64,000 nt of DNA, from contig JAWMAR010000481.1 in assembly GCA_036785375.1 (NCBI GenBank), forward strand, positions 1,178,001-1,242,000, in the 5' to 3' direction. A program made the position numbers and the translations under genes. Every line of letters begins with the position of its first letter. Positions within the stretch are counted from its first letter, which is position 1. This document shows positions 39,849 through 62,912 of the stretch, one piece after another. This DNA comes from Leucoraja ocellata. Lineage: Eukaryota. The notes under the pieces are model-generated. The model had not been told where the DNA came from, searched no databases, and saw only the letters and a list, made by a program, of their open reading frames with translations.

Positions 39849-39894
39849 ATGGGGGTCGCTGCTTATCTCTGTCTCCTTCTGTCCTGTCTGCCAG
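39849..39894 (+). CDS. IgW (IgX) heavy-chain leader exon
   Basis: MGVAAYLCLLLSCLP+G, phase-1 donor G|GTGGGT; not in the ORF track. Confidence 0.92.
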
Positions 39895-40028: not shown

Positions 40029-40319
40029 GCGTTCGATCCGCGGTCGTGCTGAATCAGAAACCGACCGAGGTGGCAAAGCCCGGAGAGTCCCTCAAACTGA
40101 TCTGTGTAACCAGCGGGTTCACCCTCAACAGCTCCAGCGTGCATTGGGTGAAACAGGTCTCCGGGAAAGGGCTGGAGTGGGTGGGAATGATAAATAATGC
40201 TGCTGAATATTACGCGCCTGCCTTCAGCGGCCGATTCACTGTTTCCAGGGACAGCAGCAATGTCTATCTCCAAATGACCCGCCTGAGTCTGGCCGACACG
40301 GCTACCTATTACTGTGGGG
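40029..40319 (+). CDS. IgW VH exon (open frame)
   Basis: Acceptor TTTGCAG; GVRSAVVLNQKPTEVAKPGESLKLICVTSGFTLNSSSVHWVKQVSGKGLEWVG...RFTVSRDSSNVYLQMTRLSLADTATYYCG with canonical Cys, Trp, Cys. Confidence 0.96.
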
Positions 40320-40358
40320 CACAGTGAGAGGAAACGGGGCCGGGCCGGTACAACAACC
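40320..40358 (+). promoter_or_regulatory. 23-RSS 3' of V
   Basis: CACAGTG (40320-40326), 23-nt spacer, ACAACAACC (40350-40358). Confidence 0.93.
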
Positions 40359-40566
40359 CAGGGGAGAGAGAACCTGCCGTCAGCTCGGAGCCAAGCGCCG
40401 TGGGTGGATCTGGAGTCACGGGTCGATCAGAACCGGTGTCCGTCTCTGACACACGGTCAATGGTTGGGCGAGAAGAAACATCGATGAACAGAGAGAGACC
40501 TTGGGCTCCAAGTTGACAGTCGGACGTGCGGAGTAACTGGGCTCGGAGACAGTGAGAGAGGATGTG

Positions 40567-40594
40567 GGTTATTGTACGGCGGTGAATCACTGTG
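40567..40594 (-). promoter_or_regulatory. 12-RSS 5' of the fused DJ
   Basis: GGTTATTGT (40567-40575), 12-nt spacer, CACTGTG (40588-40594). Confidence 0.93.
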
Positions 40595-40643
40595 ACTATA
40601 TGAGACTACTGGGGTGCAGGAACCTCGCTGACAGTGACTTCAG
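40595..40643 (+). CDS. Pre-joined D-J segment (ACTATATGA + JH DYWGAGTSLTVTS)
   Basis: WGxG motif and donor CAG|GTAAGA; no 23-RSS before J; TGA at 40601-40603 is in the J frame. Confidence 0.88.
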
Positions 40644-40859
40644 GTAAGACCAATTCCTCAATTCCATTTTACCCAGTTGTGTTTTATTAATGTATGGTCT
40701 TTGCCAATTCTGTAATTGACCTGAACTCGGTGTGATATTTGGAACGGATTTCCCGGACACAGGCGGGTTTCTCCAGAGTTGGAATCTACCCAGCAACAGT
40801 ACATTTCCCACCACGTTGAACTGCCCCACAGGCTGTTCTTTCCCTGAGTCTCGCCATCA

Positions 40860-46100: not shown

Positions 46101-46406
46101 AGGATGTGGTTTTGCCTTCAGTCCACATCACCTCTTCCTGCAACACGGAATCTGGCCAAGAGATCAGCATCCTCTGTCTGGTCAAGGACTACCTGCCTGA
46201 GATCATCAATCAGACATGGTCCACCAGCTGTGGGGTCATCAACGATGGAATCACAAATTACCCACCAGTGTTGGGACAAAACAACAAGTACACAATGAGC
46301 AGCTTGCTGCGAGTCCCTGTAGCAGATTGGAACAGGAAAACCTACTACTGCAAGGCAGGATCCAAGCCGGACAACATGGTAATAACGGCGTTCTCGAAGC
46401 TTCAAG
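46101..46406 (+). CDS. IgW CH1 exon
   Basis: Acceptor TTTCAG, donor G|GTTAGT; EDVVLPSVHITSSCNTESGQEISILCLVKDYLPEIINQTW...DWNRKTYYCKAG; includes the N-terminal light-chain-linking Cys. Confidence 0.96.
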
Positions 46407-46455: not shown

Positions 46456-46932
46456 TGTCCAAACCCTTAATAATCTTAATTAAACTCCAGGGTATACAAG
46501 CCCAGCCGCTCCATTCTCTCAGCACATGACAGTCCCGCCAATCAGGGAATTAACCTGATGAACCTACGCTGCACTCCCTCAATAGCAAGAATGTCCTTCC
46601 ACGCATTAGGGGACCAAAACTGCACACAATACTCCAGGTGTGGTCTCTACTAGGGCCCTGTACAACTGCAGAAGGACTTCTTTGCTCCTATACTCAACTC
46701 CTCTTGTTATAAAGGCCAACATGCCATTCGCTTTCTTCACTCCCTGCAGTACCTGCATGCTTATTTTCATTGACTGATGAACAAGGACCCCAAGATCCCA
46801 TTGTACTTCCCCATTTCCCAACTTGACCCAATTAAGATAGTAATCTGCCTTCCTATTTTTGCTACCTCACATTTATCCACATTAAACTGTATCTGCCATG
46901 CATCTGCCCACTCACCCAAACTGTCCAACTCA
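46456..46932 (-). mobile_element. CR1 fragment lacking both ends
   Basis: KANGMLAFITRGVEYRSKEVLLQLYRAL; stops at IIKGLDT with no 3' UTR or tail. Confidence 0.88.
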
Positions 46933-47173: not shown

Positions 47174-47349
47174 GTGGAGAATGTCCCGGCTGTTCGAAGT
47201 GTCTGCCGAAGTTCATCTACCAGAGTAATCTCAATGTGACATTCTCAGATGGTTCTACCCAGCAGTATCATTGTTGGGCAGGAAAGTGTGAAATAAAGCA
47301 ATTGGCTGCGTATGGAATTTGTCATTCTATTATTACTACCCATTTATAA
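47174..47349 (+). CDS. IgW short-form Cys-rich secretory tail exon
   Basis: Acceptor TTTCCAG; GGECPGCSKCLPKFIYQSNLNVTFSDGSTQQYHCWAGKCEIKQLAAYGICHSIITTHL*; matches the skate IgX tail as remembered; not in the ORF track. Candidate AATAAA at 47624-47629. Confidence 0.9.
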
Positions 47350-49239
47350 GATTCAAATCCAACCCCTGGTATCTACTGGGATCAAAGTGTACCAGAGTGG
47401 GGAAAATACCCAATTCAAGCTGTCTCCCTCTCCCTTCCATTAGTTGCCTGTATATTCATTCATTTGCAGACATTGTTGCTTCACATCCCAGTGCCACTGG
47501 CCAGATTTATTCATGCTCAGACTCTAGTCAGCAAGGACCACCCAGAGATCGAAAGGCAGGAGATGTTTAAGGTAAACGGTGTGAAATGTCAAAGTGGCTC
47601 AGTAAAAAATAGGATGACCCTATAATAAATGCAAACTGGTGAGGCAAGATCTAGGGCTCTAACCGGTCTCCTGTCCTATACTGGCTTTGGGTGAAAACCG
47701 TAGTTAGCACAAATTGCCACAGATTTATTAACCCACCTCCCGGACACAGACCTCAGTCCAAAGGAGAAACTCAGGGAATGCAAGGAATGTTGCAAGGAAT
47801 GGACGTGTTTGGTTATAATCATCTAAGGTTGAGCAAGACAAAATGTCTCTTGTGGAAGATACCAGCATTTGACAGGATGGAGAGTATCCATACTCTGCCA
47901 GGTTTCATAGGAGGCGGTTTCCCCCCGACACCGCGATGGTGGAACTACACGACTGTCACTGATATGGGACGGGATTGAGCATCTTGCAAACACACATGTT
48001 TAACAATATCACATTGCTGATTAAAACAAGATTCACAGAGCAAAAACATTGCACACTGTTAAACTAGACTTATAAATTTCTGATGACTCTGCAACAACTG
48101 TCATCCACACTAATACCATGCACATAACTATTTTTGAAAGGAATTTGCTCACCATTTTGCTTAAAGAAAGAGGGGTTGTGAAATAGACAACTTCTTACAT
48201 TGACAAATGTTATGTCTCCTGTCAGACAGACTCTGCTTTCTACGCAGCTGAAGGCTTTGATCTCCAGGCTCACTGAAAGTTTCAATTCTGACACAAACCT
48301 AATCACACTCCACAATAAGTGTTTAAGAGCAAAATCAGCTCATGTGGTCCAAGTGACTAAGTGTGTAAACAGTGCACACACAAGAGTGAGCTGAGTGCAA
48401 TTAGACTCATGACGCTGCTTCAGAAGACAAGTGGCAGTGCAGGTCAGTCAGGGGCAATGAATGAATAAATCATTCTCTTCCTCGCCCAATGATTCTGATG
48501 TGAAACGGGAAAATACATCTAATGCAGAATTTCATCCCAATCTGCAGCAGGAGAGGGACCTTGATACTTCTAACCATTTATGATTTGCTCTGCTGTCACT
48601 GGAGAGTCAGCCACTAATTTATTTCTGATCATTTCTATCAATTACTGAAATGCCTCAAAGTCTTCACTGGAGCACAGTCACACTAAACTGACACTAGTCT
48701 GTGGCTGAGTGAGTTTTGGTGTTTGTGGGCAACACTGCAACATGACACAGCAAGTGGTACAAAGGTGAAAGGAGTGCAGGCTTACGAGTGCCCTGAGCTG
48801 GAAGAATGACACCTTTACTGAAGGTTGTGTTTGTGGTGAAGGTTTCAGAGATGGTGAGACACATGGTCAGAGTAAGGCTGTGATATCAGCATGTGACATT
48901 CTAAACTGAGGGAATCCCAGGCTTGGCAGCCAGGGAAAAAAGTTGCTTTTCTCATTCATGTTGCTCAGTATTACTAATCGATGCAGCAGGAGTTCCAAGC
49001 AAAGCACATATCAAATTGTGCCCCTGTAATGTACCAGCTGATCATGGTGATGGGAAAGAGAGTCAAATCCCAGTTGACGGATCCTTTGTTCTGTTTTTTT
49101 CAGTCAAAACACTCAACCTGCTATTTAACACGAGTTTTTCTACTATTCTGTTTGCAATGAATCTAGCCAGTGTATAGTTTGATCTGCCATTGATCAGTCT
49201 TTTATGTGATGACATAAACATCTTAATGTTCTTTTATGA

Positions 49240-49550: not shown

Positions 49551-49853
49551 CATTGGCCGTCTTCATTCAAAATCCTGGCATGAAAGAGATTTGGATCAAC
49601 AAGACCGCTACGCTGGTGTGTTCAGTGATCTGTAGTGATCCGAGCCAGGTCCATCTCACCTGGAAGGTGGGAGGAAAGGAGAGAAGTGAAGGAGTTATGA
49701 CCCGTACACCGAGCCATGAAGGCACCCAAAACCCTGTGACCAGTGAACTCCGGACCAGCGTCGAGGAGTGGACCAGCGGGGTGGAGTTTGTGTGCTTCGC
49801 CCAACAATCTTCATCATCCTCACCAGTGTCAGCGCGGACCAACCATAACAAAG
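49551..49853 (+). CDS. IgW long-form CH3 exon
   Basis: Acceptor CACAG, donor G|GTGGGC; IQNPGMKEIWINKTATLVC...VHLTW...EEWTSGVEFVC (C1-set Ig domain). Confidence 0.93.
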
Positions 49854-50399: not shown

Positions 50400-50717
50400 T
50401 TGAGCCAAATAAACCTGAAGTCAGACTGCTGCTTCAAACACACGAAGAGACCAAGCATAGCCACAAGGTCACCCTCGAGTGTGTGGTCTCTGGATTCTAC
50501 CCAGACCTCATCAACGTCACTTGGAGTAAAGACGGTGCCCTGATCTCCAACAACACCAGCGCTGCACCAACTGCTCTGGAGCAGGCGGGCACTTTCAGTG
50601 CCAGCCACTTCCTGACCATGAGTACAGAGGATTGGAAGTCAGGCTCACGTTTCAATTGTACAGTGTATCATCGCGCCTCCAACACCATCATCACGAAGGA
50701 TGTGAAGAACATCCAAG
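50400..50717 (+). CDS. IgW CH4 exon
   Basis: Acceptor TTCCAG, donor G|GTAGGC; EPNKPEVRLL...VTLECVVSGFYPDLINVTW...EDWKSGSRFNCTVYH. Confidence 0.95.
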
Positions 50718-51715: not shown

Positions 51716-52036
51716 ATGAATGTTCAGATACCCGCCCCTCGGTCACTTTAAGCAAACCTTCCTTCGAAGAGATCTGGATCAACAAAACAGCCACCATTCT
51801 GTGTAAGGTGGTTCACGGTGATTTAGAGGGATTCAGGGTCACCTGGCAAGTGAATGAAATGAAGAGAGAAGACGGGGTGACAACTCGTGGTGTAGAGAGG
51901 ATCGGAGGTACAGACACCATCACCAGCGGACTGACGGTCCCCGCTGCAGAGTGGGAGAGTGGGGCTCTGTACACCTGTGTTGTGGAGGACAAGAGTTTGC
52001 CAACACCGGAGAGCAGATCTTTGCAGAAGCTGACAG
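51716..52036 (+). CDS. IgW CH5 exon
   Basis: Acceptor CCCAG, donor G|GTACGT; ECSDTRPSVTLSKPSFEEIWINKTATILC...EWESGALYTCVV. Confidence 0.95.
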
Positions 52037-55051: not shown

Positions 55052-55437
55052 ATGGAGTTGAGATACGTCCTCAAGTCTACCTCCTCCCCCCTTCATTGGA
55101 TGAGGTGGAGACGGATAAGACAGCCACCTTGACGTGCCTGGTCACCAAATTCTCTCCTGCAGATATCTATGTGGCCTGGATGGCCAACGACACCCTTCTG
55201 AAGACAGGGATCGTGAACCAGCCCGTGACCAAGGACACCAGGAATGGGTGGAACACCATGACCAGTCAGTTGAAGGTTTCTCCAGAGGACTGGAACTGTG
55301 GCACCACCTTCTCCTGTGTTGTGGGACATGGATCCATCACAACCAGTCTATTCAGAAGCATCAATAAATCTCACAGCAAACCCACCCTGGTCAATGTCTC
55401 ACTTGTTCTGACTGACAGCTTTAAATCTTGTGTGTAA
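55052..55437 (+). CDS. IgW CH6 exon with long-form secretory tailpiece
   Basis: Acceptor TTCCCAG; RPQVYLLPPS...TATLTCLVTKFSPADIYVAW...FSCVVGH...KPTLVNVSLVLTDSFKSCV* (NVS sequon, penultimate Cys). Confidence 0.97.
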
Positions 55438-56390: not shown

Positions 56391-57422
56391 ATGAAAAATA
56401 CATCTCCAGGTCAGAGCCCACAGAGGAAAGTGACAAAACACCTGCTGAAGACTCAGGAACATAAAGAAACTGCAAAACTAACCTCTGGAGTGGATTCTGG
56501 AATGGCTACACGATCTAAGACTGAGTTGATCACAAAAGAGAAAACTGAAATGGAGGAATTAAAGAACTCGGTAAGAGATTTGAAAAATGATGTGAAAGCT
56601 GGAAATTTAAACTTGATGGAAAACATACAATCCATTAATGCTGGTAATGAAAAAATACTCGCGGGCATTGGTGCTCTGCAAAAAAGAGTTGATGATGTGC
56701 AAGAAGAGCTAACGGGGAAAATTACTAAGGTGGCAGAAGAGTCCACAAAGATGTTTGAGGCTGTGCATGAAACTATTTCCGCAAATGCAATTGCAGTGAA
56801 AGATTTGGAAGCTGTTGTGGAAGAGATGGCTGGAGAAATGGAGGCAATGAAGTTAGAATTAGACAGCCTCAAGAGCCAATTTACAAAAGTATCTGATAAA
56901 TGTGTTGAACTAGAAGCTCGCTCAAGACGTCAAAATATACGAATACGTGGAGTGAAAGAGGGAGCTGAGGGGGAAAACGCTCGTGAGTTCACTGCCAATT
57001 TAATCAAACATGTACTCAATTTACCTGAGGCACCAGTAATTGAAGAAGCACATCGACTACCTAGATTTAAACCAAGATTTCAAGGAGAACAAGCCTACCC
57101 ACGACAGATCATAGTCAAACTTCGGGATATCCCAACAGTGGAAGCGCTGATGAAAAAAATTAAACACGGAGAGAAGATGATGTATGGAAATGATTCTATT
57201 AAACTTCTACGGGACTACCCTTATGAGATTGTGCAAAAGAGAAGAAAGTTCTCACAGACCAGAGAAGCTCTCTACGGTGTCAAGGGCGTCATATGTGGAG
57301 TGTTTTATCCGGCTAGGATGCGTATCACTTTCAAGGGAATCTCAAAAACATTCACTAACCCGGTAGAATCCCTTAAATACGCTCAAGAAATCGTGGCTAA
57401 GGCAGCAACAAAAGAAGATTGA
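56391..57422 (+). CDS. L1 ORF1p
   Basis: Coiled coil, LEARSRRQNIRIRGVKEG, IEEAHR, PRQIIVKL, YPARMRI. Confidence 0.93.
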   Translation: MKNTSPGQSPQRKVTKHLLKTQEHKETAKLTSGVDSGMATRSKTELITKEKTEMEELKNSVRDLKNDVKAGNLNLMENIQSINAGNEKILAGIGALQKRVDDVQEELTGKITKVAEESTKMFEAVHETISANAIAVKDLEAVVEEMAGEMEAMKLELDSLKSQFTKVSDKCVELEARSRRQNIRIRGVKEGAEGENAREFTANLIKHVLNLPEAPVIEEAHRLPRFKPRFQGEQAYPRQIIVKLRDIPTVEALMKKIKHGEKMMYGNDSIKLLRDYPYEIVQKRRKFSQTREALYGVKGVICGVFYPARMRITFKGISKTFTNPVESLKYAQEIVAKAATKED

Positions 57423-58358
57423 TCACCAGACGTCATGAACTAATTAATGTGCTTATTCCCCCAACAAGAATATTAGTAGAAAATTGAAAAAAGTGAATAA
57501 CACCAAGCTTTAAAAATGATTATTCGCAACAGATTTTCCACGAGACATGTCTAGACATTATAATCTTCTCTCGAATTTAATTCAAGGACATGCGATGCTC
57601 AAACCAGGAAACATTGATAACAGAAGAATGCAGTTCTGCTGAAGCTGAGAGAGACTGAAAAACATCACATGGCTTACATACTCTTACAGACTCTTACAAA
57701 GTATAGAGAATTATTAGTAATTAATAACTAACAATACTAATACATAAACTGATATTGATAAAAATGTGTTATAACGCAGACAACATGGTAATCTCACAGG
57801 TTCCGCAGCTCGAGTGGGGAGGGGAAGAGACTCAGGCACCTGGCTTAATTCCAGGAGCCTGACTCTGTTTAACCCTTTCAACGAACAGCTCACTTTTAAC
57901 AATACTAAAACCAATTACAAATAGTTAAGAGATAAAGAGAGAGGAATATATGTAACTGAATACTTGATTAGATTTGATAAGTCGGAATGAAACATATATA
58001 TATATATACTGCAATGGGGTGAAATAGAACTGATTTGGAAACGGTACCTACCCCCTAGGTTATGAGTAATAAAGTCAGTGGGGCTAACCTCATAACAGCT
58101 ACGCCGGAAGCAATATTGATGTCGTATCCCACAGACGAGTGGGCCACTCACTACGGTGTCGGAAACCCAGACACCGTACATTTATTCTATATACTTTTTG
58201 TTTTAATCACAATATGTCACATTTATGTGTTTTTTTTTCAAGGACAATCGCGGAGGGGAACTACCAAGAAAGTCTATAATATAAATGCTCCCAAAATAAC
58301 CAGAGTCCTGAGGTATGGATGCACCATAGTAAGTAAGGTCATTAAAATTGGTAAAAAT

Positions 58359-61300
58359 GTATGACGACAATCAAAGGAAAATGGGAGGAGTCACACTATG
58401 TAGTTGGAATATAAGGGGTATTAATGAACCTATTAAAAGGGGCAAGATACTAGCTCAGTTGAAAGCATACAACACGGACATTTCGTTCCTACAGGAAACG
58501 CATCTTAAACATCAAGATCAGACGAGACTGAGGGCTAACTGGATAGGCCAAACATTTCACTCTTCATTCACTTCTAAATCCAGAGGTACTGCAATTATTA
58601 TTCGTAAAGGAATTCCATTTAAATCAAAGAATACTATTTCAGATAAGGAAGGGAGATATCTTATAGTAGCAGGAGAGATCAATAATACGCCAATTACGCT
58701 GGTAAATATATATGCGCCCAACTTTGATAACCCTCAATTTTTTAATAAAATTCTGAATATAATTGCAGAATTTAATTATCAAAATGTTATAATTGGAGGA
58801 GACTTCAACTGTGTTTTAGACCCTTATTTAGATAAATCGATGCAAAAACAAAAAGGTAATATGAAATCTAAAACCAGTGAACTCTTACATACATATATGG
58901 AAAACACAAATATAGCAGATGTATGGAGGATTGCAAATCCGACGGGAAGGGACTACTCGTTCTATTCAACGGTGCATAAAACATATTCACGGATAGACTA
59001 TTTTCTTGTGGATACAAAATTAATTACACACACTATGAATCCTAAATACCACATTAATGCGATTTCAGATCACTCTCCTTTAACCTTTGTTTTAAAATTA
59101 GAAGGAATGTCTATGAATAAATCGTTCTGGAGGTTTAATTCGCAACTTTTAAAAGACCCACAAGGGAGTATATATCTAAAAAAACAGATGGACTTATTCT
59201 TTGAGATAAATGATACACCAGATATATCCCCCACGCTATTATGGGAATCCTTTAAAGCATTTATTAGAGGAGTCATTATTTCATTTCAAGCTTATCAAAA
59301 TAAAAAGAATAAGAAAGAACAAAGACATTTAGAAGAACAAATAAAACAATTAGATACAGATAATGCTAAAGATCCAACTATGGATAAACATAATAAAATC
59401 CTATTATTGAAATTCAAGCTGAATAAATTATTGTCAGAGAAAGTTATAACATTATTCCAAGTTACAAAACAAGAACACTTTGAATTCGGGGACAAACCAC
59501 ACAAACTTTTAGCACGCCAATTGAAAAAACGGGAAAAAGAGAATGCAATACTAAAGATTAAATCAGATAGTGGGGAATTATTAACATTACCCAAGGATAT
59601 CAATAAAAGATTTGCTCAATTTTACGAAAATCTATATACATCTAAAACGTCAATAGATAATAATAAAGTTTCAGAATTTCTGGAAAATTGTAACCTCCCA
59701 AAATTAGAATTGAGGGAACAAGAGGAACTGGGAGCAACAATTACTTCTAAGGAGATAGAAGACACAATAAAAACACTAAAGAACGGCAAAACACCAGGAC
59801 CAGACGGATTCAGTAGTGAATTCTATAAAGCCTTTTACGATATAGTTACCCACGATTACAGAAAATGTATACATACGCTTTTAAAGAGCAAAGCTTACCC
59901 GAAACTTTAGCAGAATCAACGATCACATTAATACTTAAAAAAGATAAAAACATAGAAGAACCAGGCTCATATAGAGCTATTGCTTTGTTAAATACGGATC
60001 AAAAAATAATAGCGAAAACACTAGCCAGTAGACTAAGCAGGTACGTTAGTAGATTAATAAATGGAGATCAAACAGGATTTATACCTAAGAGACACTCATT
60101 CAATAATTTGAGACGTTTGCTTAACATAATGCACTCACAAAAATCTCACGACCAAGAGTCATCTATTATCTCACTGGACGCAGAAAAAGTGTTTGATCAA
60201 GTAGAATGGGATTATATGATTAAAGTATTGCAAAAATTCCAATTGGGAGAAAACTTTATCGCATGGATAAAACTATTATATAACAAACCTACGGCTAGAA
60301 TATTAACTAATAATATTTTATCCTCGAAATTTGAACTATCAAGGGGCAATAGACAAGGATGCTCATTATCACCGCTGTTATTTGCTTTGGTAATTGAACC
60401 CCTTGCTGAAAAAATAAGAACACATCCGGATATTTATGGTTATAATACAAAATACTCAAAGAATAAAATATCCCTATATGCCGATGATGTACTACTGTAC
60501 ATCACAAAACCACAAATTAGTATACCAAACATATTAAATTTAATTGAAGACTTTGGATCCTTTTCGGGATATAGAATAAATTGGAACAAAAGTGAAATTA
60601 TGTCGATAAAACCAAAAGACTCAACACATCTTCGGAAATTTCCCTTTAAAATAGCTACAGAAAAATTCAAATATTTGGGAATTGAAATTATTAGAAATTA
60701 CCAGGATATGTTTAAAGCCAATTATAATCCCTTACTCAAGAAATTGAATAATCTGATTAAATTCTGGAAAACACTTCCGATGTCCTTAATAGGCAGAATA
60801 AATGCTATTAAAATGATTTTCTTACCACAAATTCTATACCTATTTCAATCAATACCTATATATCTCCCAAAAAAGTTTTTCAAAAAATTGGACTCAGACA
60901 TTACAAATTTTATATGGGATTATAAATCCCATAGAATACAAATAGCACACCTTAATAAACGAAAAGAGCTGGGGGGTCTAGCGCTCCCTAATTTTATGTA
61001 TTATAATTGGGCAGTAAATATTAAAAATATGATTCACCTGCTGGACAATTCTGCACAGCAGGCGGACTGGATGGTAATGGAAAAAGGGGACTGCTCCCCG
61101 AGTAATATAGGAGCGACCATCCTCTCACCAATAAATTTGAATAATAAAAATTATAATAAAAATCCAATTATACATAACACAATAAGAACATGGAAACAAA
61201 TAAAACAGAATTTAAAATTAAGAAACCTATCTCTTTTAATACCAATAGTCAATAATCCATTGTTTAAACCATCAATCATAGACAAATCATTTATACAATG

Positions 61301-62912
61301 GGAAAGAATGGGAATCAAAACGCTCGAAGATCTGTATGAATTGGGGAATTTACTATCATTTCAACAACTACAACTGAAATATAATTTGAAAAATAACCAA
61401 TATTTTAAATATCTTCAAATTTGTGATTATCTGAAAAAACACACAAAAGACTATCATAATATGCCTTCCGACTTATTGGATGAAGCAATGAAGACCAAGG
61501 CGGAATCAGCTAATTTAATATCGTACCTATATAATATCATTTTAAACATAGAAATACCCACAACAGATGGAATTAGAAAAGATTGGGAACAAGAATTAGC
61601 TATAAAAATCTCAAAAGAGACCTGGGATAATCATTTACTACAGGTACATGGTAAATGGTAGGGAATTGAAGAATACAGTTGAACAGAGGGATCTGGGTAT
61701 AACCGTGCATAGTTCCTTGAAGGTGGAATCTCATATAGATAGGGTGGTAAAGAAAGCTTTTGGTATGCTAGCCTTTATAAATCAGAGCATTGAGTATAGA
61801 AGCTGGGATGTAATGTTAAAATTGTACAAGGCATTGGTGAGACCAAATCTGGAGTATGGGGTACAATTTTGGTCGCCAAATTATAGGAAGGATGTCAACA
61901 AAATAGAGAGAGTACAGAGGAGATTTACTAGAATATTGCCTGGGTTTCAACAACTAAGTTACAGAGATAGGTTGAATAAGTTAGGTCTTTATTCTCTGGA
62001 GCGCAGAAGGTTAAGGGGGGACCTGATAGAGGTCTTTAAAATGATGAGAGGGATAGACAGAGTTGATGTGGACAAGCTTTTCCCTTTGAGAATAGGGAAG
62101 ATTCAAACAAGAGGACATGACTTCAGAATTAAGGGACAGAGGTTTAGGGGTAATATGAGGGGGAACTTCTTTACGCAGAGAGTGGTGGTGGTGTGGAATG
62201 AGCTCCCAGTGGAAGTGGTGGAGGCAGGTTCATTGGTATCATTTAAAAATAAATTGGATAGGCATATGGATGAGAAGGGAATGGAGGGTTATGGTACGAG
62301 TGCAGGCAGGTGGGACTAAGGGGAAAAAAATTTGTTCGGCATGGACTTGTAGGGCCGAGATGGCCTGTTTCCGTGCTGTAATTGTTATATGGTTATATGG
62401 TTATATAGGTGCATAAATGTTCGATCAACGTACGACATACGCTCATCCAATTTAAAACATTACATAGATTATATTATTCAAAAACTAAATTAAATAAAAT
62501 CTTCCCTAATGTTTCACCAATCTGTGATAAATGCCTGTGTCAAGAAGCTACCATAGCGCACTCTTTTGTTTTTTGTACAAAAATCCAAAAATTCTGGTAT
62601 GAAATATTTGATATTTTTTCAAAATTGATCAAAATAAAACTGGTACCAAAACCAGAATGGATTATCTTCGGAATATCGGAAGGTAACCCTGAATTAAACG
62701 TGTTTCAGAAGAATTTATTTAATTACGGGCTAATAATGGGAAAAAAGCTTATACTTAAATTCTGGAAAAATGCGTCGACACCAACAATAAAAATGTGGAT
62801 ATCAAATATGTTTGAAACATTACATCTGGAAGAGATGAGATTCCTCCTAGCAGGTAAAGCAGACCAATTCCAAAAGACGTGGTCTATGTTTCTGGACCTA
62901 TTACAAGTATGA
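58359..62912 (+). pseudogene. L1 ORF2 (APE endonuclease, RT, Cys-rich C-terminus); frameshift at ~59851 and CR1 insertion
   Basis: SWNIRGIN, FLQETH, NIYAPN, GGDFN, SRIDYF, SDH; KTPGPDGF; SLDAEKVFD; RQGCSLSPLLF; LYADDVL; CDKC...AHSFVFC. Confidence 0.93.
61646..62406 (+). mobile_element. Young CR1 inserted into L1 ORF2
   Basis: Open 223-aa CR1 C-terminus, (GGTTATAT)n tail; flanks AGGTACAT / AGGTGCAT; L1 peptide HLLQVH|KCSINVRH rejoins across it. Confidence 0.93.

Follow-up and report, generated by a model that had tools for sequence, protein, structure and literature searches.

A likely inherited D1-J join in an IgW cluster of Leucoraja ocellata and possible sequence signs of RAG cutting at heavy-chain gene segments

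The window analysed here, the whole stretch of 64 kb of Leucoraja ocellata DNA, harbors an antibody heavy-chain cluster in which the V segment carries a 23-spacer RSS, while a 12-spacer RSS leads almost directly into J. The locus raises the question how D and J came to be fused, whether the joint is inherited and whether a stop codon at the joint plays a role in the use of the gene. A first-pass annotation had listed a V with its 23-RSS, 208 bp of DNA, a 12-RSS followed by J, a TGA and a V end of only 4 nt, all of which are present in the sequence:

39849..39894, + strand: IgW leader exon MGVAAYLCLLLSCLP; GT donor intact, same sequence in the seven non-C128 siblings
40029..40319, + strand: IgW VH exon; open frame, Pfam V-set E 3.6e-12, CDR2 GMINNAAEYY
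40313-40319, + strand: V coding end TGT GGGG; 4 nt past the second Cys codon
40320..40358, + strand: V 23-spacer RSS; heptamer perfect, nonamer with 1 mismatch, 1 spacer base unlike C1015a
40359..40566, + strand: V-D1 intergenic DNA, 208 bp; unrearranged, between both RSSs
40567..40594, - strand: D1 5' 12-spacer RSS; same sequence as the D1 5' RSS of the unrearranged siblings L002-L004
40595..40602, + strand: D1 remnant ACTATATG; first 8 of the 13 nt of sibling D1 ACTATATGGGTGG
40601..40603, + strand: TGA in the J frame, made by the junction; 40603 is a lone base belonging neither to D1 nor to J
40604..40643, + strand: JH DYWGAGTSLTVTS; 8 nt missing at the 5' end, GT donor intact

Downstream of the 12-RSS the sequence reads ACTATATGA-GACTACTGGGGT..., also written ACTATATGA GACTACTGG..., up to the J donor GT past 40643. 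Only the V 23-RSS and the D1 12-RSS had a perfect heptamer in an RSS scan of the 64 kb; a weaker match (3 mismatches) was found at 48010. The locus is a single L-V-(D)-J-C minilocus with a V 23-RSS, a feature of IgW clusters, and one of ten IgW clusters detected in the assembly by a CH1 search, some of which are perhaps allelic copies. A T cell receptor J with a 12-RSS was ruled out by the WGxG motif of J and the Ig constant exons downstream.

Unrearranged IgW siblings are organized as V-23 / 12-D1-22 / 12-D2-12 / 23-J, with D1 ACTATATGGGTGG, D2 TATACTGGCC and J (A/A)TTATCTTGACTACTGG or ACTATCTTGA(A/C)TACTGG in the alignment. Compared to C1015a, the unrearranged reference with flanks about 1-2% off the window, the joint consists of bases 1-8 of D1, one A and J from base 9 onwards. 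Absent from the window are 809 bp including four RSSs, namely the D1 3' RSS, D2 with both of its RSSs and the J RSS. No RSS base is left over at the joint, and the breakpoints are set back from the coding ends by 5 nt in D1 and by 8 nt in J. As in partially germline-joined IgH genes, segments are fused, the intervening DNA and RSSs are gone and the breakpoints are located in the coding ends. Breakpoints a few nucleotides inside two coding ends are typical of RAG coding joints. The first-pass annotation had proposed a fusion of D(s) and J, which the sibling alignment bears out and refines, the remnant being D1 only, with D2 contributing at most one base. The remaining 23/12 pair, regarded there as still compatible, is intact. 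The objection that IgW J segments might normally carry a 12-RSS fails, since the J 23-RSS is kept in eight of nine siblings and the ninth has its own D2-J join. Judged from sequence, the junction A could be an N base, the last base of D2 or belong to a duplication of 2 nt that followed joining at a TG microhomology. The D1 and J ends are both trimmed, hence no P nucleotide is readable there. A hybrid joint was ruled out for the window, in which 8 nt of D1 are kept. The exact pattern of a D1-type 12-RSS followed by J within 30 nt had two matches in 3.44 Gb, the window locus and one IgM cluster, and the reversed control had none.

Descent from a split close paralogue is supported by the J-C intron, which is 1.3-1.9% away from that of the seven non-C128 siblings, a group that includes three unrearranged clusters; the tree of this intron has a weakly supported star shape from which the order of events does not emerge. 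The V-D1 interval (RSSs counted in) shows 2 differences in 264 columns to the unrearranged C1015a/b. CDR1-FR2-CDR2 (window 40110-40215) is 14-28% apart among most IgW clusters, with promoters, introns and spacers at about 1%, and the CDR1/FR2 of the window is similar to that of V regions from other genera of skates (P0003, P0005). This pattern suggests that old V variants sit inside homogenised flanks.

We consider it probable that RAG activity in a germ cell fused D1 to J, with D2 gone. What is left is one V-to-D1J step, for which productive joins are predicted to be rare. Since the D1 3' RSS (22) and the J RSS (23) are of the same class, a legal path goes via D2. D1-D2 and D2-J joins, both 12/23, would form the two steps; nibbling in both would have erased the 10-nt D2 and left D1 (8 nt), A and J (-8 nt), with N addition minimal or absent. 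The junction created the TGA in the J frame. Total loss of D2 in two steps is within range, because other joins removed, by our reading, 6-8 nt from the 5' end of D2 (D1-D2 joins of L067, L068 and L071/L074) and 3-6 nt from its 3' end (D2-J joins of L055 and C2945). At most one N base is present at the window joint, which fits the low TdT activity that passages of PMC2193156 report for germline joins, and passages of PMC2193153 describe coding-joint features consistent with RAG. A single RAG join of the D1 22-RSS to the J 23-RSS, against the 12/23 rule and skipping D2, would explain the joint without any D2 base and would need one event instead of two, with 13 instead of about 23 nt trimmed. 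It nevertheless appears unlikely, as every other join found here is 12/23-legal with D2 trimmed by 3-8 nt per side, and as the V-DDJ form of shark lymphocytes arises by legal steps according to passages of PMC2435157.

A deletion independent of RAG, by microhomology between the D1 and J RSS borders (GAATCAC/GTGTGACTAT) and followed by mutation, would have passed through an intermediate allele 12RSS-ACTATCTTGAC. The two borders are alike at 15 of 16 nt and ACTAT starts both D1 and J. However, three D1-specific bases are kept, the window having ATG after ACTAT like D1 and not CTT like J, for which reason we regard this route as extremely improbable; it would require an extra insertion plus substitutions matching D1 by chance, and the nonamer, spacer and heptamer are all of the D1 type.

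The D1-J joint, whatever its route, is very likely of germline origin, as judged from the genome context in one assembly and one sequencing run. Six of 24 public runs were compared (X1, X3, X4, X9, X8, X6), all as assembled contigs, in which low-depth branches are lost. Run X1, which may be the assembly's own sample, contains a 57-nt contig (40573-40629, depth 2.5) that includes the joint without any difference; it flanks the junction base by 30 and 26 letters, less than the 31-letter bridging threshold. The window V is present exactly in run X3. That the joint is instead somatic (a lymphocyte clone or early mosaic) or an assembly product, with an unrearranged inherited allele, is quite improbable. 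V-DDJ does occur in nurse shark thymocytes and spleen (passages of PMC2435157), with the same order of V-23RSS and 12RSS-DDJ, and the window joint is found in no other cluster. Moreover, no contig crossing the joint is listed in X3, X8, X6 or X4, where D1 or J ends appear unrearranged only and where contigs drop variants. On the other hand, the consensus of a 1.5-Mb contig is not normally set by one clone, an unrearranged copy of the window V does not exist among the ten clusters of the assembly, X1 has the same joint, and inherited partial joins occur often in this genome. In the passages of PMC2435157, the V-DDJ forms are unique to a clone, carry N/P additions and are rarer than VD-first forms, whereas in the window the joint is the consensus of the assembly and no more than one base is added; longer N stretches are usual in somatic joints according to passages of PMC2193156. 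Depth in X3 was about 50 over V, 86 on the D1 contig and 99 and 25 on the two J contigs; its use as a measure of copy number was dropped due to uneven depth in the GC-rich spacer. Run X8 has J spliced to CH1 at high depth over window 40560-40646 as well as unrearranged D1 and J RSS contigs; the X8 sample transcribes IgW, from whichever cluster, and the latter contigs may stem from sterile transcription of IgW clusters that are not rearranged.

Besides the window, the only V-D1J cluster, the IgW clusters comprise five unrearranged, three VD1-D2-J and one VD1-D2J configuration. At least 22 IgM clusters were retrieved by the J pattern (configurations missed by regular expressions were read by eye), among them 13 unrearranged, three VD1-D2-J, one VD1-D2J, four VD1D2-J and one V-(12RSS)J; no fully joined cluster was found among the 22 retrieved. 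Partial joins are thus present in 5 of 10 IgW and 9 of 22 IgM clusters, or 14 of the 32 IgH clusters examined. The joints of C481b/C3005 and C1442b/C2945 (IgW) and of L071/L074 (IgM) are identical within each pair, and were therefore inherited. Four IgM joints (L055, L060, L067, L068) have, by our reading, 2 added nucleotides mirroring an untrimmed end, which would fit P nucleotides. P nucleotides are a mark of hairpin opening. C1442b (L010) and C2945 (L009) share the V family and the V-D1 joint, and D2-J is joined in C2945 only; both may represent two successive germline joins, possibly as an allele difference. In the IgM cluster L052/L073 (G000:C1356:249767-249811, - strand), the V-23RSS is unjoined and the D1 12-RSS borders immediately on J, which has lost 5 nt; D bases are absent, and the J frame is free of stops. 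This corresponds by sequence to a hybrid joint, in which a signal end is placed directly on the coding end of its partner. L073 has the appearance of a hybrid joint made in the germline, which would yield a heavy chain that lacks D and rearranges in one step, or of a joined D1D2J that was later reopened. A predicted protein of Rhinoraja (P0003, YYCATDYVGGTV) is similar to the V-D1-joined clusters here (YYCARDYTGGTV), hinting at a V-D1-joined IgW in another skate.

Germline VD-J, VD-DJ and VDJ clusters are described in passages of PMC5192425 and PMC4279169, and V DD-J and V D1-D2J together with one germline hybrid joint of a shark in passages of PMC2193153. The joined IgH genes of horn shark and little skate in these three sources share with the window one V, two D and one J, the clean removal of RSSs, the coexistence within a genome of clusters with and without joins and little N addition. 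The window differs from them in that V is unjoined, D1 and J are fused, D2 is gone and a stop is in frame; furthermore, the review passages (PMC5192425, PMC4279169) describe IgM, whereas the window is IgW. Among the open papers found, in the parts available, there was no report of a germline V-DDJ or a germline-joined IgW of this form, a provisional result. The joined nurse shark NS4 (kappa) light chains, as described in passages of PMC2193156, are similar in that joined and split copies are nearly identical, events occurred repeatedly and independently, and joints show trimming, P bases (here in the four IgM joints) and little TdT activity. In contrast, they are complete VJ joins, several of them in frame, expressed in pups and found in several animals, while the window joint is partial and bears a stop.

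Downstream of J, five C1-set exons are located in the window, with the following features:

46101..46406, + strand: IgW CH1; 87% identity with P0007, a little skate cDNA; six private changes, all non-silent, with an extra Cys among them
46457..46481, strand not assigned: site of the CH2 deletion, about 2.2 kb lost compared to sibling C481b
47174..47349, + strand: orphan cysteine-rich short-form secretory exon; matches the P0007 tail
49551..49853, + strand: IgW CH3; open, AG/GT intact
50400..50717, + strand: IgW CH4; open, AG/GT intact
51716..52036, + strand: IgW CH5; open, AG/GT intact
55052..55437, + strand: IgW CH6 with long-form secretory tail and stop

A transmembrane (TM) exon is located past the window at C481:1256508-1256621 (tblastn with an IgM TM). 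CH1 is 87-91% identical to P0007, P0001 and P0006. A short form with a cysteine-rich tail and a long form of six domains are described for IgW in passages of PMC4279169, which also treat IgX as equivalent to IgW. Both forms are represented here, with the full set of six C exons present in the siblings C481b and C128a. The window cluster is skate IgW, an assignment resting on the cysteine-rich tail and the equivalence of IgX and IgW, as database names are generic; a search of the PDB for the isotype returned mammalian antibody chains only. The little skate IgW/IgX cDNA P0007 and the batoid predictions P0001, P0003, P0005 and P0006 are similar in leader, J, cysteine-rich short tail and the long-form CH3-CH6 with its secretory tail, but the window cluster lacks CH2, and hence a complete C region, as well as the stop of the short tail. 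This stop (47299-47301) reads CAA, resulting in a read-through of 16 additional codons, while TAA or TAG is kept in all eight siblings retrieved for this exon. CH2 was found in three (C481b, C3005, C128a) and absent in five (window, C1015a, C1442a, C1442b, C2945) of the eight clusters whose DNA covers the site, with C1015b and C128b outside this count. Its loss is a derived trait shared with four siblings, two of them unrearranged, and speaks against a canonical IgW rather than against IgW descent. After CH6, a near full-length element with ORF1-like and endonuclease/reverse-transcriptase ORFs (ORF2 in pieces) occupies window 56391-62909. We take this element to be LINE-like; as the similarity of the window to C1442a, C481b and C128a ends at about 56197, it may have inserted recently between CH6 and the TM exon. 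Past the window (G000:C481:1245970-1254951), three extra CH4-like exons are located between CH6 and the TM exon, compared to one or two in siblings.

Because the junction places TGA in the J frame, only joins that trim at least 7 nt from the DJ end can be read, as the first-pass annotation had claimed and an enumeration of joins confirmed: none was productive with 0-6 nt removed, against a fraction of about 0.27-0.33 with 7-12 nt. The modelled productive fraction was 2-7% under geometric trimming with a mean of 2-5 nt, which is our assumption and not taken from skate somatic data. The very short CDR3 expected in the same annotation is supported, as Cys and Trp were separated by a median of 3-4 residues under these assumed trimming models. 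Its reading of the stop as a gate fared less well. The TGA is made of the TG of D1 and one junction base, and other signs of decay are present. With CH2 absent, the short-tail stop lost and six private non-silent changes in CH1, we read the TGA as most likely an accident of joining in a copy undergoing decay rather than as a designed or selected gate. Private changes in the C exons were 6 non-silent to 1 silent in the window, 6 to 5 in C2945 and 4 to 4 in C1442b, all of them small numbers. The locus is not dead, as leader, V, both RSSs, the five C exons, splice sites and the TM exon are intact.

That stop and short V end form a selected gate, providing a rare short-CDR3 IgW with a special role, e.g. 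in early life like IgM1gj, could draw on the open V frame and the intact RSSs and C exons, on the expression of joined genes in shark pups (passages of PMC2193156) and on the divergence of V, which differs from each sibling at 22-28 of 97 CDR1-FR2-CDR2 sites with flanks at about 1%. This divergence is, however, common to all siblings, joined or unjoined, the stop is owed to a single junction base, and the private CH1 changes are all non-silent, one adding a Cys, next to the lost short-tail stop. A functional pre-joined receptor such as IgM1gj has its VDJ fully joined in frame and is expressed with no need to rearrange; in the window cluster, V is still separate and a stop interrupts the DJ frame. 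Weak additional evidence is that the joint is not listed in X4, from one related species. We therefore consider a selected gate highly unlikely; the cluster is likely an incipient pseudogene or a minor contributor rather than a gated specialist receptor. The view of the first-pass annotation that it is rarely productive or an incipient pseudogene is supported by the enumeration and the signs of decay.

The second peculiarity of the locus is the V end, GGGG at 40316..40319 compared to GCGAGAGA in the siblings. Eight nucleotides follow the Cys codon in 19 of 20 unjoined V ends (14 IgM, 6 IgW), against four in the window only. The window V reads TGTG+GGG and continues into its own heptamer, spacer and nonamer, the sequence form of an open-and-shut joint. 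It is fairly likely that this end is an open-and-shut RAG scar with 7 nt lost and 3 nt added at an untouched heptamer; RAG would have made a further cut at the V RSS, and the coding end, rejoined to its own signal end, would have gone from 8 to 4 nt. Alternatively, it could be a 4-nt deletion plus two substitutions. Runs X1 and X3 had no contig cover over 40333-40373, at the V end and its 23-RSS. Open-and-shut and hybrid joints (passages of PMC3906580 and PMC2193153) are similar in that a trimmed coding end is rejoined to a signal end. The open-and-shut joints in PMC3906580 are somatic products, as were the other reports found, by their listings somatic mammalian events, while the window scar is proposed to be germline; no report of germline open-and-shut joints in sharks or rays was found among the open papers in the parts available.

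It is the genome-wide excess of deletions at heptamer borders that bears on RAG cleavage at the V end. In the retained V-to-J DNA of the 32 clusters, seven of 14 deletions of at least 3 nt adjoin a heptamer on the coding side, compared to 0.11 expected (P 4e-12; a hand tally in one assembly, set up post hoc after the pattern had been seen, with sliding allowed in the expectation). The tally did not count indels below 3 nt, any insertion, artefacts of aligning across joined intervals, the cluster L073 or the 4 nt by which the C128a J is further shortened. The seven are D2 5' of L060 and L055, D2 3' of L054, J of L065, V of the window, and D1 5' and J of C128; without the window and the slippage-prone L054, 5 of 12 remain (P 1e-8). 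Within coding ends alone, the product of chances is 4e-5. Selection on the ends that form CDR3 may add to the excess. The IgM clusters L054, L055, L060 and L065 and the IgW clusters C128a/b (L005, L006) have D or J ends shorter by 3-10 nt at intact or near-intact heptamers. At the V ends of C128, six of the eight heptamer-side bases are unlike those of the siblings. On balance, we favor that germ-cell RAG regularly cuts IgH clusters of the skate lineage, producing partial joins such as V-D1J as well as heritable open-and-shut or hybrid scars on segments that look unrearranged.

The window joint is real and likely an inherited D1-J join of the RAG type. Pre-joined antibody genes of sharks and rays have long been known, and the locus alone is a modest addition; it contributes a D1-J join before V in IgW, an order not listed in the available parts of the literature found, with a stop that likely sidelines the gene. 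The census allows each joint to be read base by base against near-identical split siblings, and the trimming of unjoined coding ends at the RAG cut site is a more interesting lead than the single locus. If true, germline RAG would edit inherited V, D and J ends even without joining them, which would open a route to new D and J lengths and even to heavy chains without D. How frequently RAG acts in germ cells, a question of long standing, would then become testable.
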